Origin: Chloroflexota bacterium
GTDB lineage: Bacteria; Chloroflexota; Dehalococcoidia; Dehalococcoidales; G020351185
Reading direction: 5' to 3'
Length of the DNA: 50,259 bases
Assembly (NCBI GenBank): GCA_043819155.1
Contig: JBDRFC010000001.1
Location: 1-50,259 of the forward strand
Both the position numbers and the translations under genes were made by a program. Below the pieces are notes generated by a model. That model did not search any database. It was not told the DNA's origin and was given only the letters and a program-made list of their open reading frames with translations. Shown one piece after another: positions 6,593 through 30,927 of this stretch. Numbering within the stretch: the first letter of the stretch is position 1; the number at the start of each line of letters is the position of its first letter.

Positions 6593-6752
6593 CAGCCCCG
6601 AGTGGCAAACTGGCTGACAGTTACTGTCCCTCTACCACCTAATTCGCCCTAACCCCCCATCCTCTTCTTTACTGGCCTTTTCTGCCATTTCCTCAACCCC
6701 CAATCTGCAGCTGAAATATTTTCCAAATTTTAACAAAGACTACTTTGTAAAC

Positions 6753-7118
6753 GGGCCAAGTAAACCTGTAAGCCGAGTTCTGTACTGTGGCAATCGCCGC
6801 AGTGGTGACCATCTATCTAGCCCTGGCGTTGCCACCAGGGTCAAGCGACCAACCCGGGGACAGGCCGGGCGTCCTTAGGTCCCTCTATTCGGTCTTGCTC
6901 CGGATGGGGTTTGCCCAGCCGACCGGTCACCCGGCCGCTGGTGAGCTCTTACCTCACCATTTCACCCTTACCGATGGCTAATAAATAGACCGCCGGCGGT
7001 ATGTTTCTGTGGTACTTTCCGTGGAGTCGCCCCCCCTGGGTGTTACCCAGCATCCTGCCCGGTGGAGCTCGGACTTTCCTCCCCTTTCAGGGCGGTCACC
7101 CGGTTTACTTGACCCACC
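6753..7118 (-). ncRNA. rnpB: RNase P RNA, bacterial type A
   Basis: The minus strand reads GGGUCAAGUAAACC...GGGGAGGAAAGUCCGAGCUCCACC (universal CR-I GGAAAGUCCGG-type motif)...ACAGAACUCGGCUUACAGGUUUACUUGGCCC. The 5' and 3' ends pair as P1 (GGGUCAAGUAAACC/GGUUUACUUGGCCC). Length is about 366 nt. Confidence 0.9.
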
Positions 7119-7121
7119 TAT

Positions 7122-7150
7122 ACTCTAGTATAGCGGGTATAAGAAGTCAA
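7122..7150 (-). promoter_or_regulatory. promoter of rnpB
   Basis: On the minus strand: TTGACT (7150-7145), 17-nt spacer, TAGAGT (7127-7122). The predicted start, about 7 nt downstream, coincides with the first P1 nucleotides (about 7115-7118). Confidence 0.6.
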
Positions 7151-7176
7151 TTTATAAAATATAATTAGAACTGATT

Positions 7177-7572
7177 TCACCTCAAGGCGGCATTTGCCAG
7201 CTTATCGGCTTCCCTGTTCTGCTGGCGGGGAACATGTTTTATCTTAAAGCCTTTCAGCGTGCCTTGCAGCTGTTTCACCCGCTGATACAGCGGTCTGAGG
7301 GTTTCTTTTTTTACCCTGTATTGTCCCTTTATCTGCCTGACCACCAGCTCCGAATCCGAATTCAATTCAACTTCGTCGGCATCCAATGGCTGAATCTCCT
7401 CAAGGGCAGCGATAATCGCCCTGTATTCAGCCTGGTTATTTGTCGCCCGGCCAATGCTCTGTGATATAGAGGCCACCAGCCCGCCTTTTTCATCCCGGAT
7501 AATGACACCTATAGACGCCTGCCCCGGATTGCCCTTCGAGGCGCCGTCTGTATGTATTATCAGCTTTTTCAT
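7177..7572 (-). CDS. rnhA: ribonuclease HI family protein
   Basis: 131 aa. It carries the DEDD motif series: HTDGASKGNPG, NNQAEYRAIIAAL, DSELVVRQI, NREADKLAN. Confidence 0.88.
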   Translation of the reverse strand: MKKLIIHTDGASKGNPGQASIGVIIRDEKGGLVASISQSIGRATNNQAEYRAIIAALEEIQPLDADEVELNSDSELVVRQIKGQYRVKKETLRPLYQRVKQLQGTLKGFKIKHVPRQQNREADKLANAALR

Positions 7573-7578
7573 AAAACC

Positions 7579-8274
7579 TCAATCTACAAACAATATGCGC
7601 CCACAGCTATTGCACATGATTATCTTATTGCCCTTTACCCGCTGCAATTCTGCAGTTGATAGGGATATACCACAACCGCGGCATATCCCCTGCTCCACCC
7701 GGGCTACCGCTTTCCCTTTTTTCTGCCTGAGCTTTCTATAGCAATCAGCCGTTTCATCATCAATCCCTGCCAGCTCCTGCTGCTGTTCCTTCTTTAGCCC
7801 GGATAATGAAATTTTCAGCTCTTCTATCGCATCGGAAAGCTGTTTTTGCTCCTGCCGCCAGCTTTTTTCAACCTCGCCAAGTTGCTGCTTTAGCCTCGCC
7901 AGTTCGCTTGTTGCCACTTCTGCCTGCTCCATAATCTCAAGGACTTTTTCCTCCAGGCTATTGCGTTTATTCTTAAAGCTTTCAACCTCATGCTGCAGGC
8001 TGGACAACTCTTTCGGGTTTGCTATCCTGCCGCTGTAAAGGGCTTCCTGGGCTGATAACAGTTTACCGGCGACATCCTCAATCTCCCACTCGGCATTGTG
8101 CTGTTTTTTCTTGAGCTCTCCGAGGCGCTTTTCACCTGCCGACAACCTGTCTCTTGCCTCAAGCAGCACCTTGCTTTCCCCGAGCCCGGCCAGGCTCTGT
8201 GCCAGAGTTTGCTCCTTTGATTCTATATCAAGCTCGATAGCCTGAAGCTGATAGAGTTGCCTTGTTATTCCCAT
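7579..8274 (-). CDS. coiled-coil protein with C-terminal C4 zinc ribbon (COG1579/DUF164-like)
   Basis: 231 aa. A long heptad-rich region is followed by CRGCGISL...CNSCGRIL. Confidence 0.75.
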   Translation of the reverse strand: MGITRQLYQLQAIELDIESKEQTLAQSLAGLGESKVLLEARDRLSAGEKRLGELKKKQHNAEWEIEDVAGKLLSAQEALYSGRIANPKELSSLQHEVESFKNKRNSLEEKVLEIMEQAEVATSELARLKQQLGEVEKSWRQEQKQLSDAIEELKISLSGLKKEQQQELAGIDDETADCYRKLRQKKGKAVARVEQGICRGCGISLSTAELQRVKGNKIIMCNSCGRILFVD

Positions 8275-8342
8275 TTTTTCCCTCTTATTTTATAGCCAAT
8301 CCAACCGAATAGCAAAAAACGACAAAACTCAATAGCTGAATA

Positions 8343-8359
8343 AGAACATTTGTGCTATT
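8343..8359 (+). promoter_or_regulatory. 17-nt dyad motif AGAACATTTGTGCTATT overlapping an extended -10 (TGcTATTCT), upstream of the small terminase-like gene
   Basis: 16/17 identical to 13421-13437. It contains the near-palindrome AGAACAT(A/T)TGTGCT. Confidence 0.55.
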
Positions 8360-8392
8360 CTTACAATGTATCAAACCTAGGAGACGAAACAT

Positions 8393-8761
8393 ATGCCAAC
8401 TGAAGCGGAAAATGGAAAGAGGGGAGCCCCACAAGGCAATCAGAACGCCAGAAAACACGGCTTCTACTCCAGGGTGCTTGATGAAGAGGAACAGCTTGAT
8501 TTTGAGCAGGCTACCCGTGTCGAAGGCCTTGATGACGAGATTGCCATGCTGAGGGTAAGGATAAAATCCGTTCTCAAGCATGATTCGGACAATATGAAGC
8601 TTATTGCGCAGGCAACCAATGCCCTGGCCAGGCTTGTCAGCACCAGATACAACATAAGCAAGAATGACAGGAACGGGCTAAAAGAGGCAATAAATAACGT
8701 CCTTAAAGATGTTGCCCTGCCACTTGGCATCGGCTTTATCGGGAAGATAATTGATAAATAG
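8393..8761 (+). CDS. phage small terminase-like protein
   Basis: 122 aa. The N-terminal GAPQGNQNARKHGFYS motif is typical of YjcR-like small terminase proteins. It sits directly upstream of, and overlaps, the large terminase frame. Confidence 0.6.
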   Translation: MPTEAENGKRGAPQGNQNARKHGFYSRVLDEEEQLDFEQATRVEGLDDEIAMLRVRIKSVLKHDSDNMKLIAQATNALARLVSTRYNISKNDRNGLKEAINNVLKDVALPLGIGFIGKIIDK

Positions 8762-10235
8762 ACTGCGCCACTACCAGATAGAGGTGGCGATGGCTATACT
8801 GGATAGCGTCTTCCAGCGCAAGGGGCTTACTTTTTCGGTTGAGATCGCCCGTCAGGGAGGGAAAAGCGAATTATCAGCCCAGCTGGAGTTACTTCTATTA
8901 ACCCTCCTGATGGCTACGCCTAAGAATATCATTAAATGCGCCCCCACCTTCAAGCCACAAACTATCATCTCAGAGACACGCAATAGAAGACCTCGAAATA
9001 AAGGGGCTTCTGATCCAGCTTTCCACCTTCGTAAAGTTATCTCCGGCTATCATGCCAGAGGGAGGTGGGATATGAGCTAAAAGATGTCAAACCAAGACCA
9101 TATTCTATTCAAAAGGAGGAAGCATCTATGAACGAGGAACAAGATAACGATACGACTGGGTAGCGCCCGTGCTATCTTTCTATCTGCCGATAAAACAGCC
9201 AACGTCGTCGGTAATACAGCCCATATACTACTGGAAATAGACGAATCACAGGACGTTTCCAAGGATAAATATACAAAAGAGTTCAAGCCGATGGGGGCAA
9301 CGACAAATGTTACAACGGTTCATTACGGCACCGCCTGGGATGATTCCACCCTGCTTGAGGAGGTAAAACAGACAAATCTTGAGCTGGAGAGGAAGGATGG
9401 CATTAAACGCCACTTCAGATATGACTGGCAGGAGGTAGCTAAATGCAACCCGGACTATCTAGACTATGTTGAAGCCGAGAGGGATCGCCTGGGGGATAAT
9501 CACCCATTATTCCTGACCCAGTATTGCCTGTTACTCATCCACGGGGGTAGCGGTTTCTTGAATAATCAGCAGAGGGCACAACTAGCCGGCAAACATTCCA
9601 GAAAGCACCAGGCCGAGAGCGGCAAGCTCTATATCGCCGGCATTGACCTGGCCGGAGAAGCGGAACAAGAAGCCGGAACAACGGTTAAAGCCCTGAAGCC
9701 ACGCCAGGATTCAACAGTAGTTACCATAGGTGAGTTGGACTTCTCTGCTACCGATGGCATTCAAAAGCAACCCAGATTAAACATTGTGGAACACTACTGG
9801 TGGACGGGCAAAAAACACACCGACCTCTACCCCCAATTGATAGATATTCTTAGCAATGTCTGGCACTGCCGCAGGGTGGTGATTGACGCCACCGGTATAG
9901 GGCAGCCGATAAGCTCATTTTTGAAAAATTCTCTTGGTTCAAAGATTTTACCATTCACCTTCACCGCCCAATCAAAATCCCGGCTAGGCTTTAACCTTTT
10001 AGCCGCCATCAACTCAGGCCGGTTGAAAATGTATGACGGTGACGGTTCACCGGAATACAAACAGTTCTGGTTTGAAATGGAGAAGGCGAAGAGCCAGTTC
10101 CGCCCCAACAAGACAATGAATTTCTATGTAAACCCCGGGGAGGGGCACGATGATTTCCTGATGAGCTTGGCACTTCTTGCTGAAGCCTCTCAAAAGTATT
10201 CGTCAAGAAGTGCCAAGGGAAGCTCCAGGCTATAA
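8751..10235 (+). pseudogene. phage terminase large subunit, interrupted
   Basis: The frame-3 N-terminal segment carries a Walker A-like ARQGGKSE. Frame 3 resumes at 9132 with the Walker B-like HILLEIDESQD and a nuclease-domain-like C-terminus (IAGIDLAG, VVIDATGIGQ). The two parts are separated by in-frame TAA (9078-9080) and TGA (9129-9131). The peptide between about 8960 and 9130 looks non-native. Confidence 0.65.
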
Positions 10236-10260
10236 CGATTCCCGAAAGAAGCATTAATAA

Positions 10261-10294
10261 AAAATCCCCCTCCCGTTATAGAGAGGGGGATTTT
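10261..10294. terminator. bidirectional rho-independent terminator between convergent terminase and surface-protein genes
   Basis: 12-bp perfect stem AAAATCCCCCTC/GAGGGGGATTTT with a 10-nt loop. The A-run and T-run in the arms serve both strands. Confidence 0.7.
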
Positions 10295-10329
10295 AACAAA
10301 GTTAATCTAATAACCTATATATCTATATC

Positions 10330-13011
10330 TTAGTATGAACTGTAGGCGATTCTCCTGCCCAGCCACAGGGCAAGGATGAAGACTGCCAAGCCTCCCAATC
10401 CAACCAAAAGCCACGTGAGCCAGCCCGGCCAGCCACCGCCGACATAGAAGGTGCCTGCGCCTGTCCAACCGCTTTCATTGCCGGCATTGTCAACTGCCTT
10501 CACATGCCAATAAAAAGGCCCTGTCCCCTCCATATTCCCCAGTTCCAATTGCTCCGCTTCAGTGATAGTATATTCCGATCCGGCAAGCCCCGTCTTTTCT
10601 AAAACCTTGTTGGTAAAACCTGCATCTGTAGCGACCTCAAGTATATAGGTTACCGGCGGGTTCTGGCTATCGGTAACATCTTCCCAATCGAACCGTACCG
10701 GCTGATCTGGACTGCTATCCAGGTAGGGTAGCAATGGTTGTGGTATTAGTGGTGGTGCGGATTCCATTATAAAGGTAAATTGCTCCACCTCAACGCCGTT
10801 AATGCTGACTATTACAGTATGCTCACCGGCAGTACTCTTGGGAACTTCAAAGGTGGAGTCAAAAGACCCGTTATTACCAGTTCTATCAGGATCAGTAGTT
10901 AATACCGCACCGTCATATGTAACTTCTATAGGTGCATCAGCTGTATAGCCATCGCCGCTTATGGAAATCTCCATACCGATATAACCGGGTGATGCATTGC
11001 TTGTTTTCGGGCTTATACTGATATCACTGATTCCCACTGTGAAGTCCACGGTAACAGTGTTGCTGCCATCGTTAATGCTAATGATAGCAGCACCCCCCGG
11101 CATTGCCGGAATATTAAAACTACCGTTGAAACTGCCATCAGAGCCGGCTGTAATCGGCACCAGGGGAGTAACAGGTATATTTTTAATTAAAATAGTTACA
11201 TTCTTGTTAGCTCCGAATCCATAACCGGAGATTCCAACGCCATCTCCCATTCCACCACTTGTCGGGTTTATGATAACACTGGCTCCTACTGTCAGGTTTA
11301 CGCTAACGCTGGTGATGCCATCACTAATGCTGAGAGCGGCAGTACCTCCCGGGATTTCCCGAATAACAAAGCCACCGCTGAAAATACCATTGGGGTCGGT
11401 TATAATCGGTGTGGTGGATATAATTGGAGTATTTCCATACATTATCGTTATATTCTTGCTGGCACCAAATCCATAGCCGGCGATCCCAACTCCATCACCC
11501 ACTTTCCCACTGGTCGGATTGATAATAACACCTGCAACTACTGTAAAGCTTGCAGTAAGGTTACTGGTGCCATCTGTAACTGTTACTGTATAGATGCCTC
11601 CCGGGATTGATGGAACAAAGAAACTGCCATTGAAGCTGCCTTCGGAGCCCGTCTTTATCGCTGTGGTAGGTGTAACGGCAGAATTACCATAAAGTATGGT
11701 TATATTCTTACTGGAACCGAAACCGGTACCACTGACGCTAATACTATCCCCCGTGGCCCCGGTTAAAGGTGACATCGTCATCTCAGGTTTAACGCTGACG
11801 CTAGCCGTAGCCGAACGGCCGGCGGTATCTTCAACCCCTATTGTGTGAACACCCGTTTTACTGGCGGGGATGTCAAGGCTGGCGGTAAAACTGCCATCAA
11901 TCCCCACTGGAACCGTGCCGAGGCTGACATTATCAAAATAAAGGGTTGCCGTTGCCCCGGAACCAAAGCTTGAACCGACAATGGTAATTTCATCGCCGAC
12001 AATACCGGTGGTCGGGCTTAAATTTATAGCCGTATTTACAGCCACTGCAAAGGTTGTAGTGGCAAAAATATCACTATCATCCTCATCTTCAGCCAGAATG
12101 GTGAAGCTGCCGGTATCAACATCAGGCACAGTCAGATTCACGGCAAAGGTGCCATCGCTATTAGTGCGGCCCCCGCTTTCCACAAGCCAGACAACATTAG
12201 TAGCCGGATTTCCGCCAAAACTGAAGTCAACGCCATTGCGCCTGTCAAAACCGGTGCCGGTAACCGTTATCACGGTTCCGGTTTCACCGCTGGCAGGATT
12301 AACGCTTATCTCCGGCTCTACGGTAAAGGTATCTTCAACCTCAGCCAGAGAATCCTCTCCCCTGATGGTTATGGTATGATCACCGAACTCGCTTTCCGGG
12401 ATGATTATAAAAAGTGAGAACTCGCCATTCTCATCAGTTTTTTCATCTCCACTCTCTATATCTATTTCTTCGCCATCGTATTCCACAATTATAGTTTCAT
12501 CCGGGGCAAAACCTCCACCACTAATTTCAACCTCGGTACCCACAGGACCTTCATTGGGGTCAAAATCGGTAATTTCAGCAATACCAATTACTGTAAAGGT
12601 AGTTTCAGCTACAATTGCCTTATTGTTAGACCTGGTCATATATATATAATATGTGCCCCCATGGACGCTTTCGTCATCTTCGCCATCAGTTAACTCCGCC
12701 GGCACTAAGATGTTTATAGCACTATAGGCGCCTGCTACACCGGCAGCACTCACGCTAACAAGGAAATCATAAGTTGTAACTTCAGTGTCAATCTCATCAC
12801 CCAAAGCAGCATTCTGGCTGGAAAAGAAAATATAATATTCAAGAGGATAAGTTCCAAAGCCAGAAACACTTATCGTATCGCCGATTTCACCCTCATCAGG
12901 GACAATATTAACGCTAATAGCCGCTGAAGCCGGCACTGCCGGTATCGCCACCAGCAGCAGCGCTAAAGTCAGGGCTACCGCCAAAACCCGAAAAAACTTC
13001 TTATATTTCAC
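10330..13011 (-). CDS. large cell-surface protein: signal peptide, about 10 Ig-like (IPT/TIG-type) repeats, FN3-like domain, C-terminal TM anchor
   Basis: 893 aa. The GTG start is preceded by GGGGGAGG. The signal peptide is MKYKKFFRVLAVALTLALLLVAIPAVPASA. GxxISVSGxGF repeats recur throughout. The FN3-like stretch is PVRFDWEDV...YWHVKAVDNAGNES. The C-terminal helix is WLTWLLVGLGGLAVFILALWLG, followed by a basic tail. Confidence 0.85.
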   Translation of the reverse strand: MKYKKFFRVLAVALTLALLLVAIPAVPASAAISVNIVPDEGEIGDTISVSGFGTYPLEYYIFFSSQNAALGDEIDTEVTTYDFLVSVSAAGVAGAYSAINILVPAELTDGEDDESVHGGTYYIYMTRSNNKAIVAETTFTVIGIAEITDFDPNEGPVGTEVEISGGGFAPDETIIVEYDGEEIDIESGDEKTDENGEFSLFIIIPESEFGDHTITIRGEDSLAEVEDTFTVEPEISVNPASGETGTVITVTGTGFDRRNGVDFSFGGNPATNVVWLVESGGRTNSDGTFAVNLTVPDVDTGSFTILAEDEDDSDIFATTTFAVAVNTAINLSPTTGIVGDEITIVGSSFGSGATATLYFDNVSLGTVPVGIDGSFTASLDIPASKTGVHTIGVEDTAGRSATASVSVKPEMTMSPLTGATGDSISVSGTGFGSSKNITILYGNSAVTPTTAIKTGSEGSFNGSFFVPSIPGGIYTVTVTDGTSNLTASFTVVAGVIINPTSGKVGDGVGIAGYGFGASKNITIMYGNTPIISTTPIITDPNGIFSGGFVIREIPGGTAALSISDGITSVSVNLTVGASVIINPTSGGMGDGVGISGYGFGANKNVTILIKNIPVTPLVPITAGSDGSFNGSFNIPAMPGGAAIISINDGSNTVTVDFTVGISDISISPKTSNASPGYIGMEISISGDGYTADAPIEVTYDGAVLTTDPDRTGNNGSFDSTFEVPKSTAGEHTVIVSINGVEVEQFTFIMESAPPLIPQPLLPYLDSSPDQPVRFDWEDVTDSQNPPVTYILEVATDAGFTNKVLEKTGLAGSEYTITEAEQLELGNMEGTGPFYWHVKAVDNAGNESGWTGAGTFYVGGGWPGWLTWLLVGLGGLAVFILALWLGRRIAYSSY
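11035..11790 (-). repeat. three tandem, diverged ~243-nt coding repeats (Ig-like modules) inside the surface-protein gene
   Basis: Protein units ...SVSGTGFGSSKNITILYGN..., ...GIAGYGFGASKNITIMYGN... and ...GISGYGFGANKNVTILIKN... are alignable end to end. The similarity is visible at the DNA level (e.g. 11221-11300 vs 11461-11540). Confidence 0.75.
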
Positions 13012-13042
13012 TTTTTACCTCCCCCTTTTTTATAGAATTATA

Positions 13043-13246
13043 TCATATTAGTCTTTTTTTAGCGCCACGCCTGGAAATATAAGTGCCGGCAAAATTGTCC
13101 AATATATCCTTTGCTATCAGCCAGGTATTGTGGACTTTTATCGCCGGTATATCTTCCTGACGGCACAAACGCTTCACCGTCTCCGGGTGAATCCCGAGGC
13201 GCCGCCCGGCTTCTATTACATTAAAGTAATTATCTAAAGGAGCCAT
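13043..13246 (-). CDS. excisionase-family / MerR-like helix-turn-helix DNA-binding protein
   Basis: 67 aa. The stretch NVIEAGRRLGIHPETVKRLCRQEDIPAIKVHNTWLI is typical of the HTH_17/Xis family. It lies 31 nt upstream of the surface-protein gene on the same strand. Confidence 0.7.
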   Translation of the reverse strand: MAPLDNYFNVIEAGRRLGIHPETVKRLCRQEDIPAIKVHNTWLIAKDILDNFAGTYISRRGAKKRLI

Positions 13247-13272
13247 AATTTAACTATTACTTTGTCAAAACA

Positions 13273-13301
13273 ATAATAACACCAACACCTCCCTCTGTCA
13301 A
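13273..13301 (-). promoter_or_regulatory. consensus-like promoter for the HTH + surface-protein operon
   Basis: On the minus strand: TTGACA (13301-13296), exact 17-nt spacer, TATTAT (13278-13273). Confidence 0.6.
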
Positions 13302-13409
13302 ACAAAGCAGTTTAAAGGTAATAACGTAATTAAAAGGGAAAGGTTAGCACCGGTTATAAAGATAAATAAAAACTTTCTGGTACGAAGGGAAAAATACGAC
13401 AAAAGACCA

Positions 13410-13439
13410 TTGACCATATTAGAACATATGTGCTATTTT
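13410..13439 (+). promoter_or_regulatory. promoter (TTGACC-18-TGcTATTTT) with embedded dyad motif AGAACATATGTGCTATT (13421-13437)
   Basis: The -35 is at 13410-13415 and the extended -10 at 13431-13439. The motif is 16/17 identical to 8343-8359 and contains the palindrome ACATATGT. Confidence 0.6.
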
Positions 13440-13476
13440 ATTACCACTCAGTGATTTTTGAGTTGGGTGATTTGGA

Positions 13477-13788
13477 TTGCAATTTATGGAACTTGAAACG
13501 ACGTTTAGTACTGAGATCGATTTGCCACCGGAGTATTGCCATTATAAAGATGAAGGTTGTGAACTGGCTGAATCCTGTCTCAATTGCCCCTTCCCCATGT
13601 GCATCTATGATGAACCCGGGGGCAAGCAGCGTCTGCTTAAAAGGCAGCGGGACAGAGAAATGGTCAGACTTTTTAAAGATAAAGGAAAGGAAGTAAAAGA
13701 GCTGGCATTGATATTCGGCATCAGTCATCGCATCATCCAGAGGGCTTTAAAGAATTATCGCACAACACAGGCAGGGCAATGCAGTTGA
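13477..13788 (+). CDS. Cys-rich N-terminus + C-terminal helix-turn-helix protein (candidate regulator of the phage-like operon)
   Basis: 103 aa (TTG 13477, or ATG 13486). The Cys cluster is CHYKDEGCELAESCLNCPFPMC. It is followed by the basic/HTH segment EMVRLFKDKGKEVKELALIFGISHRIIQRALKN. Confidence 0.6.
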   Translation: MQFMELETTFSTEIDLPPEYCHYKDEGCELAESCLNCPFPMCIYDEPGGKQRLLKRQRDREMVRLFKDKGKEVKELALIFGISHRIIQRALKNYRTTQAGQCS

Positions 13789-13828
13789 AATATACAATAG
13801 CTGGCATTTTTCAGAAGAGGATTAAAAA

Positions 13829-15211
13829 ATGAACGAAGATTTCACCCCGATGCAATTAAATAACCGCGAATTAGACAGATTCAAGCGATACAAAGAACTG
13901 CTTGATTTCTACCACGGCCGGCACTGGCTGGGTAACGCCGGTCGTGGCGATAAACAGCTCACCTTTAACTATGCCAAGACAATTATAGACAAGGTATCTT
14001 CCTATGTAATGTCCGGCGCTCACAATACCGTTGTAGCATTAGAAGATTCGGATGAAGCCGAACAGGAAGCCAAGAAGGCTGAAGCCGCCCTGCAGCAAGT
14101 ATACCAGGAAAACAATCTGGAGCAGCTTGACCTGGATACCGAGATTGATTGCGCTATTCTGGGTGATGCCTGCTACAAGGTCATCTGGGACAACGAAGCC
14201 AAGAGTGTCCGCGTTACCGCCCCCGACATACAGGGTATCTACGCCTGGTGGCTGGGGGACGACACCTCAAAGCTATGGCGGGTAGCTTCAAAGTACAATT
14301 TGACCGCAGAAGAAACGGAAATCCTGCATCGTATAAAGCCCAAAGGGAAAACAGCTACCATCGTCGAGCTGTGGACAGAACAGCACTTTGAGCTGTGGCT
14401 GGATAATAGTCTTATAGAGAAGAAGGCCAATCCCTACGGCTTCATCCCCTTTATCATCTACCCTAACCTGAGAGAGCCCAAGAAATTCTGGGGCATATCC
14501 GACCTGCCCCAGCTTATAGAGCCGCAACGGGAATTGAACCGGGCGATGAGCCAGCTATCAAGAATCCTGGAGCTTTCCGGCAATCCCATTGCCGTGCTGG
14601 AGAACGTGGAGGAGTCCGAGGACATCGCCGTAAGCCCCGGTGCGGTATGGAATATTCCCGACGATGCCAAAGCCTACCTGCTGGACCTGCTCCAGGGTGG
14701 CGGTGTCGGTCTGCATATAAACTATATTGACCTTCTCTACCGCACCCTGCATGACGTCGCCGAATCACCCCGTGCCGCTTTCGGCGGTACTTCCAGGGAC
14801 TTATCCGGAGTTGCCCTTGAGATTGAGCTACAGCCACTGCTGCAGAAAGTATGGCGCAAGAGGCTCATACGAACCACCGCTTTAAGGCGACGCAACCATC
14901 TCATACTGAAGCTGCTGGAAAAATACAGGAACCAGAATTTTGGCAGCTATCGCCTGGATATAATCTGGACCCCGGTGCTGCCCAGAGATCTGACCCGGTT
15001 GGTAGCCAGCGAGCAGACACTCATCCAGAACGGCATTCACTCAAGACGACGGGCTATGTCTGAAATAGGGATTAAAGACCCCGATAAAGAATTTGCCAGC
15101 TGGCTTGAGGAAAAAGAAGCCATCCTCAGTATGAACCAACAACTTAACACAAAAACTTCCCGGGGCGGGACGCGAGAGAGAGCTAATCAGCCCCATAAGG
15201 AAGATATCTAG
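13829..15211 (+). CDS. phage portal protein (SPP1 gp6-like)
   Basis: 460 aa. Size, position upstream of scaffold and capsid, and N-terminal motifs (RYKELLDFYHGRHW, LTFNYAKTIIDKVSSYV) fit a portal. SD is GAGGA. Confidence 0.75.
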   Translation: MNEDFTPMQLNNRELDRFKRYKELLDFYHGRHWLGNAGRGDKQLTFNYAKTIIDKVSSYVMSGAHNTVVALEDSDEAEQEAKKAEAALQQVYQENNLEQLDLDTEIDCAILGDACYKVIWDNEAKSVRVTAPDIQGIYAWWLGDDTSKLWRVASKYNLTAEETEILHRIKPKGKTATIVELWTEQHFELWLDNSLIEKKANPYGFIPFIIYPNLREPKKFWGISDLPQLIEPQRELNRAMSQLSRILELSGNPIAVLENVEESEDIAVSPGAVWNIPDDAKAYLLDLLQGGGVGLHINYIDLLYRTLHDVAESPRAAFGGTSRDLSGVALEIELQPLLQKVWRKRLIRTTALRRRNHLILKLLEKYRNQNFGSYRLDIIWTPVLPRDLTRLVASEQTLIQNGIHSRRRAMSEIGIKDPDKEFASWLEEKEAILSMNQQLNTKTSRGGTRERANQPHKEDI

Positions 15212-15235
15212 TATCAAACAAGGAGGTTAGTTACT

Positions 15236-15739
15236 TTGGCAGACGAAGAGAAAAAAGAGCCAGAACCCATAGAAGAAAAGTTAGGCAGGCTCAAGGTTAA
15301 AGTCTATGAGCTTGAAAGCCTGGTAGCTAGCAAGGAAAAGGAGCTTGCCTCAAGAGACAGGCAAAACTCCAAGCTGGAGCAGGCTATCGCCGATAAGGAT
15401 AGCCAGATTACCAGCCTGAAACAGGCTCTTGCCAAATCTGAAGAGCAGGACAAACGTCTAACTGATAGCTTGTTCCAGGCGGTATCCAGTTACAGGTCTG
15501 TGATAATAAGCGCCAATCCCGAAGTGCCGGAAGAACTCATAAGCGGCGATTCAATAGAGACTATTGATAAGTCCCTGACCAGGGCTGAAAAGCTGGTCAG
15601 CCAGGTAAGGCAAGGATTAGAAGCCGAGGCAATGCAGACCAGGTTTCCCAGTGGTGCCCCGGTGAGGACGCCGCCAGACCTATCAGCTTTATCTCCCAAG
15701 GATAAAATCAAATATGCCATGGGAGGTGTTTCGCCCTAA
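15236..15739 (+). CDS. phage scaffolding protein (coiled coil)
   Basis: 167 aa. The TTG start has an AAGGAGG SD. The sequence is an acidic/Lys-rich heptad coiled coil lying between portal and capsid. Confidence 0.65.
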   Translation: MADEEKKEPEPIEEKLGRLKVKVYELESLVASKEKELASRDRQNSKLEQAIADKDSQITSLKQALAKSEEQDKRLTDSLFQAVSSYRSVIISANPEVPEELISGDSIETIDKSLTRAEKLVSQVRQGLEAEAMQTRFPSGAPVRTPPDLSALSPKDKIKYAMGGVSP

Positions 15740-15787
15740 AAGGGCGGATATCTGCTGAAAATAGTTAATAAAAAGGAGAAATAAAAA

Positions 15788-16708
15788 ATGGCTTTAACTT
15801 TAGCTGAAGCATCAAAATTATCAAACGATATGCTGTTACAGGGGGTAGTGGAGACTATCGTTAAGGACTCCCCTATACTACAGCAGCTACCATTTATAGA
15901 GATTGTGGGCAACGGTTTAACATATAACCAGGAAAATACCCTGCCCAGCATTGATTTCTATGACGTTGGCGATACCTGGGACGAATCCACGCCGACCTTT
16001 GAACAGAAGACGGCTAACCTGAAAATAATCGGCGGTGATGCCGATGTTGATAACTTCCTCAAGGCAACACGCAGTAACGTACAGGACCTTGAAGCGGCTA
16101 TTATAGAACTCAAGGCAAAGACACTCAGGCAGAAGTTCGATGAGATTTTCATCTATGGCGACTCTGCCACAAATTCAAAACAGTTTGACGGGCTGAGGCT
16201 GATCATCGATACAACTTCCGCCAGCGACCAGGTTATTGCTATGGGCGCCACCGGCGCCACCCTTACGCTAGACAAGCTGGATGAGCTTATCGATGCCATA
16301 AAAGGTGGCAAGCCAGATATGCTGCTGATGAGCCGCCGTTCAAGGCGCAAGGTAAATACCCTTGTCAGGGCGGCTGGCGGCATGATGGACGCCGACCGTG
16401 ATAGCTGGGGTAATTTCATCCAGTTATGGGATGGCATTCCCATCGGCGTCAACGATTGGATACTGGATACCCACGTAGTTGCCGACAGCCTGGAAACGGA
16501 CACTACCGGCGGCGATTGCTCTGCAATCTATGCCATCCAATTCGGCGAAGGCGCCCTCTGCGGCTTGACCAGTCCGGGACTTCTTCAGGTAGAGCCGATC
16601 GGTCCACTGGAGAACAAGGATGCCTCGCGTACACGTGTAAAGTGGTACTGTTCGCTGGCTCTGTTTTCTTCTGTAAAAGCAGCGGCGCTTATAGGCATCC
16701 AGGATTAA
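15788..16708 (+). CDS. phage major capsid protein (HK97-fold type)
   Basis: 306 aa, in the canonical position after the scaffold. The motif pattern ..LTLDKLDELIDAIKGGKPDMLLMSRRSRRKV.. is typical of this capsid family. SD is AAGGAG. Confidence 0.7.
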   Translation: MALTLAEASKLSNDMLLQGVVETIVKDSPILQQLPFIEIVGNGLTYNQENTLPSIDFYDVGDTWDESTPTFEQKTANLKIIGGDADVDNFLKATRSNVQDLEAAIIELKAKTLRQKFDEIFIYGDSATNSKQFDGLRLIIDTTSASDQVIAMGATGATLTLDKLDELIDAIKGGKPDMLLMSRRSRRKVNTLVRAAGGMMDADRDSWGNFIQLWDGIPIGVNDWILDTHVVADSLETDTTGGDCSAIYAIQFGEGALCGLTSPGLLQVEPIGPLENKDASRTRVKWYCSLALFSSVKAAALIGIQD

Positions 16709-16719
16709 ATTAAATCTAT

Positions 16720-16743
16720 GGGGAGGGGTTTTACCCCCTCCCC
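16720..16743 (+). promoter_or_regulatory. GC-rich stem-loop immediately after the capsid gene (processing/attenuation hairpin)
   Basis: 9-bp stem GGGGAGGGG/CCCCTCCCC with a 6-nt loop, 12 nt after the capsid stop. There is no downstream T-run. Confidence 0.45.
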
Positions 16744-16761
16744 GACTAAAGGAGATAAGTT

Positions 16762-17103
16762 ATGGCTGAAGTTTATGTAACACAACCAAAGCTCCATCGG
16801 AGTAATGTCACCGCCATCGATTCATCCGACCCGGCTGACACGTCAGGGGCTATAGACAGCGGGAGGTATAAGGAATGCCGCTTTGATATCACCATTACCG
16901 GCACCGATTTTGCCAGTCTCGAAACCCGGGTAATTTTCTGGAACCCAAGGCAGCAGAAATGGTTCGGTGGCAGCAGCAGGACCTTTACTTCCACCGGACA
17001 ACATGCCCTGGTGGTCGACTCCAGAGGGGCTATCATATTTTTTAAGGTAACCGCTTTCTCAGGGACTTCATTTTCCCTGTCGGCGGATTACAGCATGAGT
17101 TAG
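16762..17103 (+). CDS. phage structural-module hypothetical protein (113 aa)
   Basis: Strong SD (AAGGAG), beta-rich sequence, tightly packed in the operon. Confidence 0.6.
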   Translation: MAEVYVTQPKLHRSNVTAIDSSDPADTSGAIDSGRYKECRFDITITGTDFASLETRVIFWNPRQQKWFGGSSRTFTSTGQHALVVDSRGAIIFFKVTAFSGTSFSLSADYSMS

Positions 17104-17112
17104 GAGGTAAAA

Positions 17113-17727
17113 ATGCTTAAACTGGCTGGAGAAATGTTAGAAGGGCAACTCGCTGAACATACAACAGACCTTGATACCCACACACTGAACATTTGGAATC
17201 AATACAGAATTGGTCAATATATCGGTTTTGGCGGCACCACCGGCAGTGGCGTCGCTATAGCCGCAGATACTTTATATGCCATGCTATTCCCCGTCGTAAG
17301 AACGATGACATTTGACCGCATCGCCACATATATTGCAACGCTGGCAGATGGCAAAACGATAAGGCTGGGAATATATGCGGATGATGGAAATCTTTATCCC
17401 GGAGCACTGGCACTTGACGCCGGCACAGCCTCGGTCGCCACAACCGACACAAAGGCGATCACGATAGATAAGCAGCTTACAAAGGAGTTCTACTGGCTTG
17501 TTTTTATAAGCGACGGTATCCCGGCACTTTACAGAGGTGATGCCCTTGATAGAACCATGTGGACGCCAACTGGTCTCTCTGCAACAAGTCTAAGATACGC
17601 AACTGCGGGCTGGACCAAAACCCAGGCTTTCGGGGCTTTGCCGGACCCGTTCCCCAGCGGGGGCAGCTTGGAAATATATAACTGGGCAATAGCACTTAGG
17701 CCATCTTCAATGGATCAGGGAGGTTAA
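17113..17727 (+). CDS. phage structural-module hypothetical protein (204 aa)
   Basis: SD is TAGGAGG, with a 9-nt gap from the preceding gene. Confidence 0.6.
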   Translation: MLKLAGEMLEGQLAEHTTDLDTHTLNIWNQYRIGQYIGFGGTTGSGVAIAADTLYAMLFPVVRTMTFDRIATYIATLADGKTIRLGIYADDGNLYPGALALDAGTASVATTDTKAITIDKQLTKEFYWLVFISDGIPALYRGDALDRTMWTPTGLSATSLRYATAGWTKTQAFGALPDPFPSGGSLEIYNWAIALRPSSMDQGG

Positions 17728-17728
17728 T

Positions 17729-17941
17729 ATGTCAGAGATAAGATACCAGGCAATAGAAACATACGATGGCGAGGGCAATCTGATAGCCACCGAATCCATA
17801 CCCTACGAGGTTTCCAAAGAGGAAATGGCCAGGGAAGAAGCGGAAAACATAATCAAACAGCTGTCCGATTTGCCCGATGCCGAGCTAACCACCACCCAGC
17901 TTAAACAGCTTGTAAAAGCGCTGGCCAGGTTAAGGAGATAA
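17729..17941 (+). CDS. phage structural-module hypothetical protein (70 aa)
   Basis: SD is GGGAGG, with a 1-nt gap from the preceding gene. Confidence 0.55.
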   Translation: MSEIRYQAIETYDGEGNLIATESIPYEVSKEEMAREEAENIIKQLSDLPDAELTTTQLKQLVKALARLRR

Positions 17942-17944
17942 CCG

Positions 17945-18568
17945 ATGAACCTGACTGAAATGAGAGCTATAGTGCGACGCGACCTGCGCGACGAGGACTC
18001 TGAAAACTACCGCTGGAGCGACGATGAGCTTAACCGCCACATCACCCACGCCATCGGGGAGCTTTCCGAAGCCATACCTCTGGAACAAAAGGCGACCACC
18101 AACGGCTCAAGGGAGATTGATATATCCAGTTTATCGGACAGGGTGATGGTTCAGGCCTTAGAATACCCGGTGGGCCGTTTCCCCAGAGTATACCAGCGCT
18201 TCTCCCTGTGGGGCGACGCCATAACCCTGCTGGGCGGCGAAGTCCCGGATGGCTCAAACACCTATATCTACTACGGTAAGTTGCACACCCTGGATGCCAC
18301 CAGCTCAACAATCCCCACCATCTACGAGAATCTTGTCAGCACCGGTGGCGCCGGCTATGCCGCCGTAGAGTGGGCCGCCTTTGCCATAAACCGGGTTAAT
18401 GTCGGCGGCAATACAACACCCAGAGAGTTTCTGGACTGGGGGCAGGAAAGGCTCAACTACTTCAGGCAAGAGCTTAAGCGGCTTGGTCGCAGAAACCGTG
18501 CCAGAGTAAACCAGCTGTACAAGCCAGCCTATCCGGTCGTGTCAAAAACAACCGACTACGGACCATAA
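17945..18568 (+). CDS. putative head-tail adaptor/connector-like protein (207 aa)
   Basis: The N-terminus LTEMRAIVRRDLRDEDSENYRWSDDELNRHITHAIGELS resembles gp6-type adaptor N-termini. SD is AAGGAG. Confidence 0.5.
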   Translation: MNLTEMRAIVRRDLRDEDSENYRWSDDELNRHITHAIGELSEAIPLEQKATTNGSREIDISSLSDRVMVQALEYPVGRFPRVYQRFSLWGDAITLLGGEVPDGSNTYIYYGKLHTLDATSSTIPTIYENLVSTGGAGYAAVEWAAFAINRVNVGGNTTPREFLDWGQERLNYFRQELKRLGRRNRARVNQLYKPAYPVVSKTTDYGP

Positions 18569-18583
18569 ATAACTGGAGAACTA

Positions 18584-18832
18584 ATGATAGCAGAAATCTA
18601 CAAAACACTATGGCATGCCATCGGCGGACGCCCATGGACCTATATAATGCGTGATATATGGCATAAATACGAAGGGCTGTGTATTATCACCCTCGTTACC
18701 CTGGGTGCGTTGCTAGGGCACTGGATATGGCCGCTGGTCTTCTGGCTACTGCTTGTTTTTGCTTCTGGTTATATTGCCGGCCATTTATTCTGGGGAACGA
18801 AATACATCCCTGATCAAGCGGGTGAGGATTAA
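18584..18832 (+). CDS. small membrane protein, 2 TM helices (holin-like topology)
   Basis: 82 aa. The hydrophobic segments are LCIITLVTLGALLGHWIW and LVFWLLLVFASGYIAGHLFW. Confidence 0.55.
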   Translation: MIAEIYKTLWHAIGGRPWTYIMRDIWHKYEGLCIITLVTLGALLGHWIWPLVFWLLLVFASGYIAGHLFWGTKYIPDQAGED

Positions 18833-18834
18833 AA

Positions 18835-20847
18835 ATGAGAACTCTAACAGAAACTCTGCTAGCTGCCCAAAAGCAAGCTTCCTGCATTCCATATGTAAAG
18901 CTGGAAGCCAGCAACAAGATTGCCAGGGTTACCCGGCTTTACTGGACCAGGCTGTATAACGGCTCGGAGGACGACTACTTCCATGCCTTGGCCATACCCG
19001 GTGACGGCTCACTTATCAGGGTCAGGATAACACCGCCGTCTGACTCAAGAAAGCTATACTGGCAACGGGTAGCCAATCCGGACCCGGAGTCCGATTTTAG
19101 CCAGTGGACCTATGCAAACCAGTATAACGCCGTTATCGTGGCTACGGCTTCGCTGGGAGCCGAGGTATCCATATTCTGGATTAAGTCCGACCGCAAAATA
19201 CAGCGTATAAAGAGCACCGATTATGGTGTTAGCTGGGGAAGCGCGGAACTTGTTGATTACTCACCGACCACCGCCATAAACGGCATTTCCGCCGCCTACA
19301 AAGCAAATGGTGACATCGCCCTGTTCTTTGCCGACCAGTCTACTCTTTATGTCAAAATATATGAAAATGGACAGTGGCAGACAAAATCAGCCTGGGATAA
19401 AAGCACCGGCAATCTATCAGGCGCGGCGACTGTCTATGACGGCGATTGGAACCTTTTTATCACCGGGCAGGACACGGATGACAGCTACAAGCTGTGGAGT
19501 CTCATTTATGGCGACGGTGGTGAAGTCGCCGCCGGTAGCTGGTCTGAGCTAAAGGAATTCGCCCAGGCTCCATCCGGCGGCGACTTCGAATACCACCGTG
19601 CTTTTCTAGGCAAACCGGATGTCTTCCGTGGTTTTTACATTGAGAAGTTCACCGGCAGCCAGGCTTACTCGCGTCCCTTCTGGGCACATTCGATAGCTGA
19701 TACAGCTTTCATCGACAACCTGTGGCGGGAAGCGGTGCCCTTTAATCTATCTTCGAATTACGGGCTGGCTATTGCTCACCACGGAGATTGCTGCTGGCTG
19801 TCCTGCCCCAACGGCGTCTGGCAAGCCTCTCTTGCCAGCCAAAGTCTGGAACTAACTGCCGATGTCCTCTCTCTAAAACAGGAAACAAAAGGTTTAGATG
19901 ATAAGCTTGCCGTAGAAATCAGAAATGATGACGGCTGTTTCTCATCAATGCCGGCACCGCTTGGCATCGGCTGCCAGCTGGACTTTAGCCCCGGTTATAC
20001 AACCTCACAGGGCAACGAGGCAAGCAGCGGGCACTCATTTTTCGTGGAAGCCTGTGAATATACAAGCTCAGGTGGCAGAGCCAGCCTGATTCTTTATGCT
20101 ACCGGCGGTTGGGAATTGCTTCGGAATTGGGTATGCCGTTACCAGTTACGATGGAATAAAGATTCAGAGGATACGAATGTTAAAGATATCATCGCCTTTA
20201 TCCTCGCCCGGGCCGGATTGAAGCTGGAGGTTATATCCCAATCATCGGTTATTACCGGCTTCTATCCCGATTTCACCATAAACCCCGGGAGCGGGGGCGA
20301 CACCGTCATCAGTAGGCTCATGTCATTTGCGCCTGATGTATTGTTTTTTGAGGGCAATAAAGCCTATCTTATCAACCCGCAGGCTGAAGATAATCCGGTT
20401 TATTCCTATATTACTCCGCAATCCGATGCGGCCGGCATCCACCCGATATTTAAAGGGCACTATAAGCTAAGTGCCCTGAAGCTTAACCGGATTCAGGTTG
20501 AAGGCTTCGACATTGCCAGCGAATCCGCCATCGTCACCGAAAGCTTCGACTGGGAAGAAATAGAAAGGCTTTATGACCGCTTTAAAAAGCTGGAGGATAT
20601 AAACGTGGGCTCGGTAAGCCAGGCACAAGCTCGGGGTGAGGCCCACCTCCGTAAAGCCGAAATAGCATCAGCCAATGGCACAATCAGCATCCCGGTTAAC
20701 TGTGGCCAGCAGCTATATGATGTCATTGAAATCACCGATAGCCGTGCCGGACTTGATACCGAAAAAAGGCGGCTGCTGGGCTTAACCCTGACTTACAATC
20801 CGAGCCGCAGTGAGTATGAACAACGCTTGATACTTGGTGCAGTATAA
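18835..20847 (+). CDS. large tail/hub-like protein: N-terminal BNR/Asp-box beta-propeller-like half + C-terminal gpD/late-control-D-like half
   Basis: 670 aa. It has the Asp-box STDYGVSW and W-rich blade-like repeats. The C-terminal pattern (VKDIIAFILARAGL ... ISIPVNCGQQLYDVIEITD ... LTLTYNP) resembles baseplate-hub proteins. Confidence 0.6.
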   Translation: MRTLTETLLAAQKQASCIPYVKLEASNKIARVTRLYWTRLYNGSEDDYFHALAIPGDGSLIRVRITPPSDSRKLYWQRVANPDPESDFSQWTYANQYNAVIVATASLGAEVSIFWIKSDRKIQRIKSTDYGVSWGSAELVDYSPTTAINGISAAYKANGDIALFFADQSTLYVKIYENGQWQTKSAWDKSTGNLSGAATVYDGDWNLFITGQDTDDSYKLWSLIYGDGGEVAAGSWSELKEFAQAPSGGDFEYHRAFLGKPDVFRGFYIEKFTGSQAYSRPFWAHSIADTAFIDNLWREAVPFNLSSNYGLAIAHHGDCCWLSCPNGVWQASLASQSLELTADVLSLKQETKGLDDKLAVEIRNDDGCFSSMPAPLGIGCQLDFSPGYTTSQGNEASSGHSFFVEACEYTSSGGRASLILYATGGWELLRNWVCRYQLRWNKDSEDTNVKDIIAFILARAGLKLEVISQSSVITGFYPDFTINPGSGGDTVISRLMSFAPDVLFFEGNKAYLINPQAEDNPVYSYITPQSDAAGIHPIFKGHYKLSALKLNRIQVEGFDIASESAIVTESFDWEEIERLYDRFKKLEDINVGSVSQAQARGEAHLRKAEIASANGTISIPVNCGQQLYDVIEITDSRAGLDTEKRRLLGLTLTYNPSRSEYEQRLILGAV

Positions 20848-20865
20848 AGAAGGAGATTAAATATA

Positions 20866-21078
20866 ATGAAACTAAAAAAAGCGGTACTGAGAAACTTCAA
20901 TTCCATAGATTATACGGCTACCATCCAGCTTGTCGGTAGCTTCAAGGTATACCTTGAAGATATTGCCGTCGCCCGCAACCTGCCATCAGCCGAGATGATA
21001 AACGGCAGAAAGGCAGCGGTCGTCTTCTTCGATGAGTATAACCCAAAGGAAGCGGTGGTGGTGGCTGTTTACAATTAA
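20866..21078 (+). CDS. small OB-fold-like spike/gpV-N-terminal-like protein (70 aa)
   Basis: The pattern TATIQLVGS...LEDIAVARNL...GRKAAVVFFDEYNP.EAVVVAVY resembles small baseplate spike domains. SD is GAAGGAG. Confidence 0.45.
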   Translation: MKLKKAVLRNFNSIDYTATIQLVGSFKVYLEDIAVARNLPSAEMINGRKAAVVFFDEYNPKEAVVVAVYN

Positions 21079-28511: not shown

Positions 28512-28561
28512 TTCCTCCTCCTTATTCTTCTACTATAATTTGTAAATATTTATTCTGCATA

Positions 28562-29785: not shown

Positions 29786-29875
29786 CTGACTCCTCCTTTT
29801 TTATAACTATATTCAGACTCCCTTGAGTTTCTTATTTTCACATCTCTAAACCTCCCCGTTCGGGTATTCTTTTAA

Positions 29876-30922: not shown

Positions 30923-30927
30923 CTCCA

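Follow-up and report, generated by a model that had tools for sequence, protein, structure and literature searches.

Is a compact set of phage-type head, packaging and tail genes, lodged among the housekeeping genes of a bacterial chromosome, the residue of a prophage or a possession of its host? The question is raised by a locus in a Dehalococcoidales (Chloroflexota; Dehalococcoidia) metagenome-assembled genome (MAG) that is 68% complete (G000 below). The window, by which we mean the whole stretch analysed, is positions 1–50,259 of contig JBDRFC010000001.1 (50,259 nucleotides, nt), and the cluster under study lies at 8343–21078. On the plus strand it runs in the order terS, terL (in two pieces), a gap, a Mor-like gene, portal, scaffold, capsid, three small genes, adaptor, a two-transmembrane (2-TM) protein, a hub of 670 amino acids (aa) and a spike of 70 aa. 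An earlier note on this DNA had taken the cluster for something like a gene transfer agent (GTA) or a domesticated remnant, possibly in mid-decay. We favour, at a probability of about 0.7, the reading that it is a host-owned, vertically inherited, SOS-wired gene set for a DNA-packaging particle of the GTA type, known here from genes alone. It does not look like a dying prophage: phage-derived capsid, packaging and stub-tail genes have apparently been inherited with the Dehalococcoidia chromosome, kept under selection and placed under a DNA-damage switch. Purifying selection on the cluster is as strong as that on aminoacyl-tRNA synthetase genes.

Two hallmarks of GTAs were found. Profile scans and more than 80 loci of relatives reveal structural and packaging genes on the chromosome without modules for integration, replication or lysogeny. 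Mantel tests, maximum-likelihood (ML) trees and ratios of nonsynonymous to synonymous substitution rates (dN/dS) indicate vertical descent and purifying selection.

Distribution and synteny

Relatives of the capsid gene were found in 380 species-level genomes (Dehalococcoidales and Dehalococcoidia MAGs). Their frequency by taxonomic rank is as follows.

Order, evenly drawn high-quality genomes: capsid gene in 100 of 131, open in every case and nearly always single; 70–94% identity to the window's capsid
Class, high-quality genomes: capsid gene in 71 of 124, single copy; 52–69% identity
Chloroflexota outside the class: capsid gene in 7 of about 100; 46–55% identity

The comparison of syntenic loci that the earlier note had called for reveals the cluster across the order. 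The same full arrangement (rnhA, the zinc-ribbon gene, terS–terL, a reversed surface-protein operon, the Mor-like gene through to the spike, rpsU and yqeY) recurs in several families, and the Mor-like gene is conserved in nearly all relatives. Dehalogenimonas-like complete genomes have the head/tail block, and their terS–terL often lie hundreds of kilobases away. In other orders the block is either contiguous and free of the surface-protein operon (locus L195) or split and rearranged (L192, L199). Such scattering of parts to separate loci is typical of host-owned elements.

Three complete Dehalococcoides-like genomes are without the capsid gene, yet part of the cluster survives at the syntenic site: the Mor-like gene, portal residues 1–290 abutting hub residues 249–670, the spike, terS and terL, the last intact in two of the three. 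At positions 6724–11182 of one such locus, L185 (G013:C1:366000-385900), deletion has removed scaffold, capsid, adaptor and 2-TM genes, whereas the spike, terS and an intact terL are kept; this block has the opposite orientation to that in the window. Such remnants indicate that the element was present in the common ancestor and has sometimes been lost. The idea of mid-decay thus applies to lineages of this kind, and to terL of G000 (see below), but not to the element as a whole.

Distant capsid homologs (35–43% identity; G040, G141 and G100) have almost nothing else in common with the cluster, look like unrelated larger prophages and were set aside. Several relatives (G097:C32:64623-65405 and 73310-73465; also G148, G088, G098 and G117) have a capsid copy that begins only at residue 36–46, and the initial ~50 codons of the gene, with a stop, stand ~8 kb off or on another contig. 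This pattern suggests that the gene was either interrupted by an insertion or partly duplicated. Among the Dehalogenimonas-like genomes, G072, G128, G133 and G141 have 2–5 terL-related matches at scattered loci, some of them fragments; these could be additional copies, other prophages or decayed duplicates.

Co-divergence with the host and purifying selection

We compared pairwise protein distances of portal, capsid and hub with those of PheS and PheT in 36 genomes. The two sets are strongly correlated (r = 0.84, Mantel test, P-value ≤ 0.0005), and the coefficient is 0.81 when the Dehalogenimonas-like clade is removed. ML trees of the cluster and of PheS/PheT have all well-supported clades in common and similar branch lengths. 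The agreement extends to the branching within the Dehalogenimonas-like group and to subclades of large families.

These trees bear on one rival explanation, that of a mobile satellite resembling the capsid-forming phage-inducible chromosomal islands (cf-PICIs), or of a site-specific phage that repeatedly infects Dehalococcoidia at one conserved site. A set of capsid, portal, terminase and adaptor with little tail does resemble capsid-forming satellites. Moreover, the capsid is more conserved (78–94%) than the flanking housekeeping proteins (46–73%), which could hint at recent spread. However, portal and hub diverge as much as host genes, and the cluster and host trees are congruent with similar branch lengths. 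The marks of a cf-PICI-like satellite (integrase, replication module, mobility) were not found: the scanned open reading frames (ORFs) include no integrase, primase or other replication gene and no excision module, and no circular or excised forms and no identical copies in distant hosts were seen. A mobilisable unit could not have its parts scattered over separate loci, as they are in several lineages. We consider mobility of this kind highly improbable.

Selection was measured as dN/dS with the Nei-Gojobori method (NG86) in the two closest genome pairs.

Portal: 0.05–0.11
Capsid: 0.06
Adaptor: 0.13–0.15
Hub: 0.13
Spike: 0.05
Scaffold: 0.10–0.16
Mor-like gene: 0.085–0.088
pheT: 0.105
pheS: 0.08

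The range for the cluster (0.05–0.16) is at the level of the housekeeping genes pheS and pheT. Capsid and portal, for which the earlier note had proposed this check, span 0.05–0.11 and are under strong purifying selection. Over 80 species-level loci the ORFs are intact for the capsid in 80 of 80, for the spike in 55 of 55, for the portal in 60 of 63, for the hub in 53 of 55 and for the adaptor in 59 of 61. Single in-frame stops, mostly TAG, occur in otherwise full-length genes for portal (L081, L093), hub (L026, L091) and adaptor (L052, L076); these may be errors of sequencing or pseudogenes confined to a lineage.

An ordinary defective prophage in decay, i.e. a temperate podovirus that integrated between rnhA and rpsU, would account for the broken terL of G000, for the occasional portal, hub and adaptor stops of a few relatives and for the capsid block deleted in Dehalococcoides-like genomes. 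It does not account for a site and gene order conserved across families, for co-divergence with PheST at the depth of the order, or for housekeeping-level dN/dS together with a capsid gene intact in every one of the 80 species. Nor is there an integrase, a repressor switch, a replication gene or an att repeat in more than 80 loci. An eroding prophage would not stay intact over class-level divergence, and we regard this origin as very unlikely. Relaxed selection and scattered frameshifts in relatives, named by the earlier note as signs of plain decay, are not observed, dN/dS being low and the genes mostly intact. Overall, the comparisons point to vertical inheritance under constraint with sporadic lineage-specific lesions, and neither to prophage decay nor to recent spread.

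Gene content and flanks

Gene calls were made from Pfam and PHROG profile scans of all sizeable ORFs in 8343–21078.

8393–8761, plus strand: terS, small terminase subunit (phrog_1889, 3e–10; also phrog_509 and phrog_370; 63–86% identical in syntenic relatives)
8751–10235 (pieces 8751–9080 and 9291–10235), plus strand: terL pseudogene, large terminase (Terminase_6C and terL PHROGs)
10330–13011, minus strand: secreted repeat protein of 893 aa with a signal peptide and a C-terminal transmembrane anchor, cell-surface or S-layer-like (translation; weak MG2 matches)
13043–13246, minus strand: HTH_17 (MerR/excisionase-type) DNA-binding protein of 67 aa, heading the surface-protein operon (PF12728, 2e–08)
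13477–13788, plus strand: Mor/late-activator-like protein of 103 aa, Cys-rich with a helix-turn-helix (HTH), first in the head operon (phrog_836, late transcriptional activator, 8e–05)
13829–15211, plus strand: portal (SPP1_portal, 8e–31; phrog_64, 3e–48)
15236–15739, plus strand: scaffolding protein, coiled coil (phrog_233, head scaffolding, 8e–04; position between portal and capsid kept among relatives)
15788–16708, plus strand: major capsid protein, HK97 fold (phrog_212, 6e–73; Phage_capsid, GP7 and SU10_MCP above cut-off)
16762–17941, plus strand: swap-prone module of three genes of 113, 204 and 70 aa (comparison with relatives)
17945–18568, plus strand: head-to-tail adaptor (SU10_adaptor, 2.7e–05, 25.2 bits against a cut-off of 27; phrog_399, structural protein)
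18584–18832, plus strand: 2-TM protein of 82 aa (translation; weak LapA_dom match)
18835–20847, plus strand: tail hub of 670 aa with an N-terminal beta-propeller (AlphaFold2 model, Foldseek)
20866–21078, plus strand: OB-fold central spike or plug of 70 aa (AlphaFold2 model, Foldseek)

The scans and fold models recover terS, terL, portal, scaffold, HK97-type capsid, adaptor, 2-TM protein and the 670-aa and 70-aa genes exactly where the earlier note had placed them. The tight packing that it described is seen in intergenic gaps of –11 to 53 nt, and the strong ribosome-binding sites in an AGGAG-type Shine–Dalgarno (SD) sequence before nearly every gene. The flanks are also the housekeeping genes it named, with RNase P RNA (6753–7111), rnhA and a gene for a CT398-type zinc ribbon on the 5' side and rpsU and yqeY on the 3' side. 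Its account of the region left out the reverse operon of the HTH_17 and 893-aa proteins and the Mor-like HTH gene. The Mor-like protein matches the Pfam families HTH_23, HTH_28 and Mor, all below cut-off.

Among the scanned ORFs of 8343–21078 we found no gene for an integrase, repressor switch, replication, tube, sheath, tape measure or endolysin, in keeping with what the earlier note could not recognise, and no prohead protease. No further gene-like ORF of at least 50 aa in this interval is long or well initiated enough to be counted, short overlapping ORFs lying outside the scan. No att-like direct repeat joins the flanks. ORF maps of the relatives' loci are equally free of integrase, repressor-switch, replication and lysis genes and of flanking repeats; by the earlier note, adjacent integrase, replication or lysis genes would have marked an ordinary prophage. 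In fact, nothing that defines a temperate prophage (integrase and att sites, immunity switch, replication, lysis) was found in this region of the window or in relatives. The only regulators in the region are the HTH_17 protein, the Mor-like protein and a host LexA-type box.

The 2-TM protein is conserved in at least 24 relatives, including Dehalogenimonas-like genomes, and is a candidate holin or release factor. Elsewhere in the window mraW (rsmH), ftsA and ftsZ stand together (27372–31021, minus strand) without mur genes between them. Dehalococcoides cells lack a peptidoglycan wall. The mraW–ftsA–ftsZ block is consistent with a wall-less cell, which bears on an endolysin not being needed.

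Promoters and a predicted LexA operator

Both operons, terS–terL and the one from the Mor-like gene to the spike, open with near-identical sigma-70-type promoters of the architecture GACAAAA-N5-6-TTGAC-N4-6-TAGAAC-N4-GTGCTA-nnnT. The GAAC-N4-GT(G/T)C core is a LexA box of the Gram-positive type and lies across the spacer and the TG of an extended –10 element. Two such boxes were read from the sequence of the cluster.

8343–8359, plus strand: LexA-type (Cheo) box AGAACATTTGTGCT, overlapping the extended –10 of the terS–terL promoter
13421–13437, plus strand: LexA-type box AGAACATATGTGCT, in the promoter of the head/tail operon, where it is flanked by the –35 (TTGAC) and the extended –10

Box and architecture are found 5' of the Mor-like gene in 41 of 47 genomes from ~18 families, and the box is found 5' of terS in 12 of 17 relatives. 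A strict motif, AGAAC-N4-GTKCT, has four sites in G000: one in each cluster promoter, one at lexA and one in a Y-family polymerase promoter. The lexA gene of G000 (LexA_DNA_bind and Peptidase_S24 domains) has the box TAGAACGGATGTTCTT immediately upstream, and in the Y-family (IMS) polymerase promoter the box lies between –35 and –10.

G000 contig C60, 15029–15708, and contig C38, 4248–4798: predicted SOS-regulon members besides the cluster, namely lexA and the Y-family (IMS) polymerase gene, respectively

The same-genus genome G003 (100% complete) has exactly three strict sites, namely the two cluster promoters and one ~30 nt upstream of lexA. The operator core is that of the Cheo box, GAAC-N4-GTTC, and is present in this genome also at lexA and the Y-family polymerase gene. 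LexA of Dehalococcoides reportedly binds a GAAC-N4-GTTC-type box. Taken together, the sites suggest that LexA would bind at both cluster promoters.

A second conserved element, GACAAAA, stands just 5' of the –35 (window 13247–13476 and the intergenic regions of relatives), and TGTCAA/TTGACA-like repeats are present where the HTH_17 and Mor-like genes diverge. Either may serve as sites for one of the two small HTH proteins.

Hub, spike and variable module

The AlphaFold model of the hub, built from 36 homologs, has a pLDDT (predicted local distance difference test) of 66.5, a moderate confidence, and falls into two halves. The C-terminal half resembles spikes of extracellular contractile injection systems (eCIS) and Photorhabdus virulence cassettes (PVC), VgrG, Mu gp44, the MuSo2 43-kDa protein and T4 gp27 (Foldseek, E 4e–13 to 4e–7; 4e–13 to 1e–9 for eCIS spikes, VgrG, Mu gp44 and MuSo2). 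The N-terminal half is a beta-propeller that in Foldseek resembles the PLL/PHL lectins of Photorhabdus. Among viral models the hub matches 'Phage protein D/tail protein'. The spike is modelled with confidence as an OB fold (AlphaFold2, pLDDT 94.2). In the PDB it comes closest to Mu baseplate chain V, P2 gpV and T4 gp5, although the E-values, from 4e–3, are weak. On these models the hub and the OB-fold spike downstream of it appear to belong to the gp27/Mu gp44/VgrG hub family.

The interval between capsid and adaptor varies from 80 nt to 3.2 kb among relatives. The window's trio (113, 204 and 70 aa) is found in only 4–6 of them; most, including the same-genus genome, carry instead a protein of ~154–180 aa, a lectin-fold protein of 224–775 aa (concanavalin-A-like; LamG_3/Laminin_G_3, 3e–11) and a protein of ~75 aa. 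The trio probably encodes decoration, fibre or receptor-binding proteins, and the cassette-like exchange of a lectin-fold protein at this place fits a receptor-binding or fibre module. The operon of the 893-aa surface protein and the HTH_17 protein is fixed between terL and the head operon throughout Dehalococcoidales and is missing from the contiguous cluster of another order, L195. Relatives have one or two fast-evolving paralogs of the surface protein at the same place (28–48% identity), and the HTH_17 protein is 67–84% identical in relatives and intact in 30 of 30 loci. The surface protein may have a functional tie to the particle, for instance as receptor or S-layer.

The tail parts bear on what the particle would do. 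A domesticated particle might serve a function other than gene transfer: export without delivery, killing or competition in the manner of PBSX, an anti-phage decoy or interference, or a head that borrows the tails of helper phages. The evidence for domestication (distribution, co-divergence, dN/dS) applies equally to such a function. Direct LexA wiring recalls colicins, pyocins and PBSX-type defective phages, and a minimal tail without tube or tape measure would suit a non-transfer particle. Yet the propeller-hub, the OB spike and the lectin-fold fibre module are kept under purifying selection (dN/dS 0.05–0.2), and the fibre module is swapped between lineages, as would be expected of particles that have to attach and deliver to cells with changing surfaces. 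TerS and TerL are intact in relatives, which suggests that filled heads matter. The retention of adsorption and penetration parts under selection favours DNA delivery, as by a GTA, over mere export or killing. We regard a non-transfer function as possible but rather unlikely.

A broken terL and a foreign cassette

Intact terL of relatives encodes 459 aa from a TTG start that overlaps the 3' end of terS. In the window the frame is closed by TAA at 9078–9080 and TGA at 9129–9131. The Walker A motif (ARQGGKS) lies at ~8850, Walker B (LLEIDES) at ~9225 and the nuclease half at 9291–10235. Among 35 matching loci, in-frame stops in terL occur in the window only. Stops are missing from all 22 full-length copies of relatives; 10 copies run off the end of the retrieved stretch, and one, in a long-read MAG, has a single frameshift. 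With synteny, purifying selection and the lack of flanking repeats, this intactness of terL in relatives bears out the GTA-like or domesticated character that the earlier note had proposed. We aligned the terL junction by hand and by local alignment.

8972–9155, plus strand: foreign segment of 184 nt in place of 79 nt of terL, between Walker A and Walker B (comparison with relatives)

No second copy of the segment was found elsewhere in its own 68%-complete genome or in the retrieved loci of relatives, and a search of Rfam at a permissive threshold returned nothing meaningful. An exact-word scan of metagenome contigs yielded a single contig with the segment, L202, which carries rnhA, the zinc-ribbon gene, terS and the terL N-terminus of a distant relative (47–71% protein identity). 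Its terL is broken at exactly the same position as in the window. The segment is 93–95% identical in nucleotides between the two, versus ~70% for the adjoining terL DNA. In L202 it forms the SD and start of a 282-aa ORF (cassette at L202 2111–2959, minus strand), followed by ORFs of 96 and 101 aa; the only Pfam match of the cassette ORFs is a sub-threshold HTH_38. The window keeps the first 32 codons of the 282-aa ORF, after which terL resumes at IRLGSA, and at this right junction cassette and terL share only a short imperfect microhomology. In short contigs of three other public metagenomes (Logan) the segment runs on into other sequence. No public sequencing run with this genome was found (shares ≤ 0.12), the matching contigs being those of relatives or of the cassette with other flanks.

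The simplest history would be that a horizontally moving cassette inserted at a fixed site in terL and that most of it was later deleted, together with 79 nt of terL, at the microhomology. Possibly the cassette is a mobile element with the terminase gene as its target. The terL of this copy is probably truly dead, and the genome probably lacks a working packaging motor and makes at most empty heads. The loss looks recent, since all other cluster genes are full length and the window's branch in the cluster tree is not conspicuously long compared with the host tree. We also considered an assembly chimera as the cause of the lesion, which is unlikely given a microhomology too short for a de Bruijn mis-join, and translational bypass or splicing of the 184-nt segment, for which we found no support.

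Evidence against a selected, LexA-controlled particle

Several observations count against the reading of the cluster as an SOS-wired, GTA-like gene set of the host. The terL lesion means that this copy may do nothing, and it is known from the assembly of a 68%-complete MAG. About a quarter of the order's high-quality genomes have no capsid gene; hence the system is dispensable. A gp27-type hub without tube or tape measure makes an unusual tail, and the particle could be incomplete or need parts not found. As to regulation, the strict motif is not enriched genome-wide (chance alone would give ~3 sites in 0.83 Mb), and a reversed-pattern control yields similar counts. The right half-site is GTGC, not GTTC, in most genomes (at the cluster promoters it doubles as the TG of the extended –10), and the box is more degenerate in Dehalogenimonas-like genomes. 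Motif counts thus match chance, and the case for LexA rests on the placement and conservation of the sites, not on their number.

Comparison with known systems

Functionally, the closest systems are GTAs, above all that of Rhodobacter capsulatus (RcGTA), with PBSX also close; RcGTA comes first because of its order-to-class-deep vertical inheritance. RcGTA of Alphaproteobacteria (Rhodobacter capsulatus, Caulobacter) is likewise a chromosomal structural-only cluster with vertical inheritance to order-to-class depth, purifying selection and some dispersal of its parts; its host regulation would be a further parallel if LexA controls the present cluster, and both have TerS/TerL, a portal and an HK97-fold capsid. 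The two clusters are not homologous, however. The present one has no ORFs for a prohead protease, a tail tube, a tape measure or megatron-type proteins and so falls outside the RcGTA family. Its tail consists of adaptor, hub and OB spike, and its portal has SPP1-type and its capsid and adaptor SU10-type Pfam affinities. An apparent direct LexA operator stands here in place of the CtrA/GafA/quorum network of RcGTA, the host belongs to Chloroflexota, and the system is known from genes alone.

PBSX of Bacillus subtilis is a host-fixed, phage-derived and DNA-damage-induced particle whose own terminase packs DNA; induction of the present cluster would make it similar in this respect too. PBSX differs in its long contractile tail, its own repressor Xre, its lysis enzymes and its confinement to a narrow species group, whereas the present cluster has a stub tail, no endolysin and class-wide conservation. 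BaGTA (Bartonella), VSH-1 (Brachyspira), Dd1 (Desulfovibrio) and VTA (Methanococcus) are independent domestications of tailed phages and comparable as a functional class only. They have other phage ancestors and other host phyla, and transfer was shown by experiment there, compared with genes alone here.

SU10/Kuravirus-like podoviruses share the order portal–scaffold–capsid–adaptor and the lack of a protease (SU10_MCP, 29.6 bits against a cut-off of 24.1; SU10_adaptor, 25.2 against 27; SU10_portal, 17.7 against 30). The cluster differs from them in having no SU10 nozzle, needle or fibre set and in a distal tail built on a hub of the gp27/Mu gp44 type, and it is not a virus genome. Podovirus-like in gene order, it has a hub and spike of a kind that otherwise typifies long-tailed phages and contractile injection systems.

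Full-text literature searches on GTAs and prophage genes, with the stems Dehalococcoid- and Chloroflex- and the name Dehalogenimonas, returned no description of this system. A recent preprint on Dehalococcoides viral fractions is about another element, one like a filamentous virus, and contains no mention of terminase or GTA (bioRxiv 10.64898/2026.09.15.751708). New from this window are the co-divergence and selection tests, the specificity of the box in a complete relative, the hub and spike folds, the capsid-block deletion in Dehalococcoides-like genomes and the cassette hit in terL.

Proposed mechanism and implications

We infer LexA binding, particle formation, the nature of the packaged DNA, release and delivery along the following lines. 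DNA damage would lead to cleavage of LexA and derepression of both operons, and the Mor-like protein may act as a further, late activator. Procapsids would then form from portal, scaffold and capsid without need of a protease, and TerS/TerL would fill them with DNA. Adaptor, hub trimer, OB spike and fibres would close the heads with a stub tail that bears propeller and lectin-fold binding domains. Wall-less cells could release the particles without an endolysin, perhaps helped by the 2-TM protein, and the particles would bind related cells through their lectin-like domains.

A bolder form of this reading extends it to the class. Most Dehalococcoidia, from the organohalide-respiring Dehalogenimonas to other orders, would carry an independently evolved GTA, fired by LexA upon DNA damage, with a podovirus-like head, a hub-spike stub tail and exchangeable lectin fibres. 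Much of the gene exchange among these small-genome bacteria would pass through it, and its terminase gene would be a target of site-specific cassettes, as in this window. We offer this version tentatively, at somewhat less than even odds.

To our knowledge, few lineages have a proven GTA, and conservation at order-to-class depth is known for that of Alphaproteobacteria alone. If the favoured reading is true, the present cluster would be a second ancient and independent system, in another phylum, with another architecture and a direct LexA switch, and long-term domestication of phage particles would be a recurrent process. Dehalogenimonas-like complete genomes, apparently of cultured species, carry the system, which makes it directly testable. 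It would also give a mechanism of gene flow to Dehalococcoidia, bacteria with tiny genomes and few known transfer routes that are important in bioremediation and in the carbon cycle of the subsurface and the sea.

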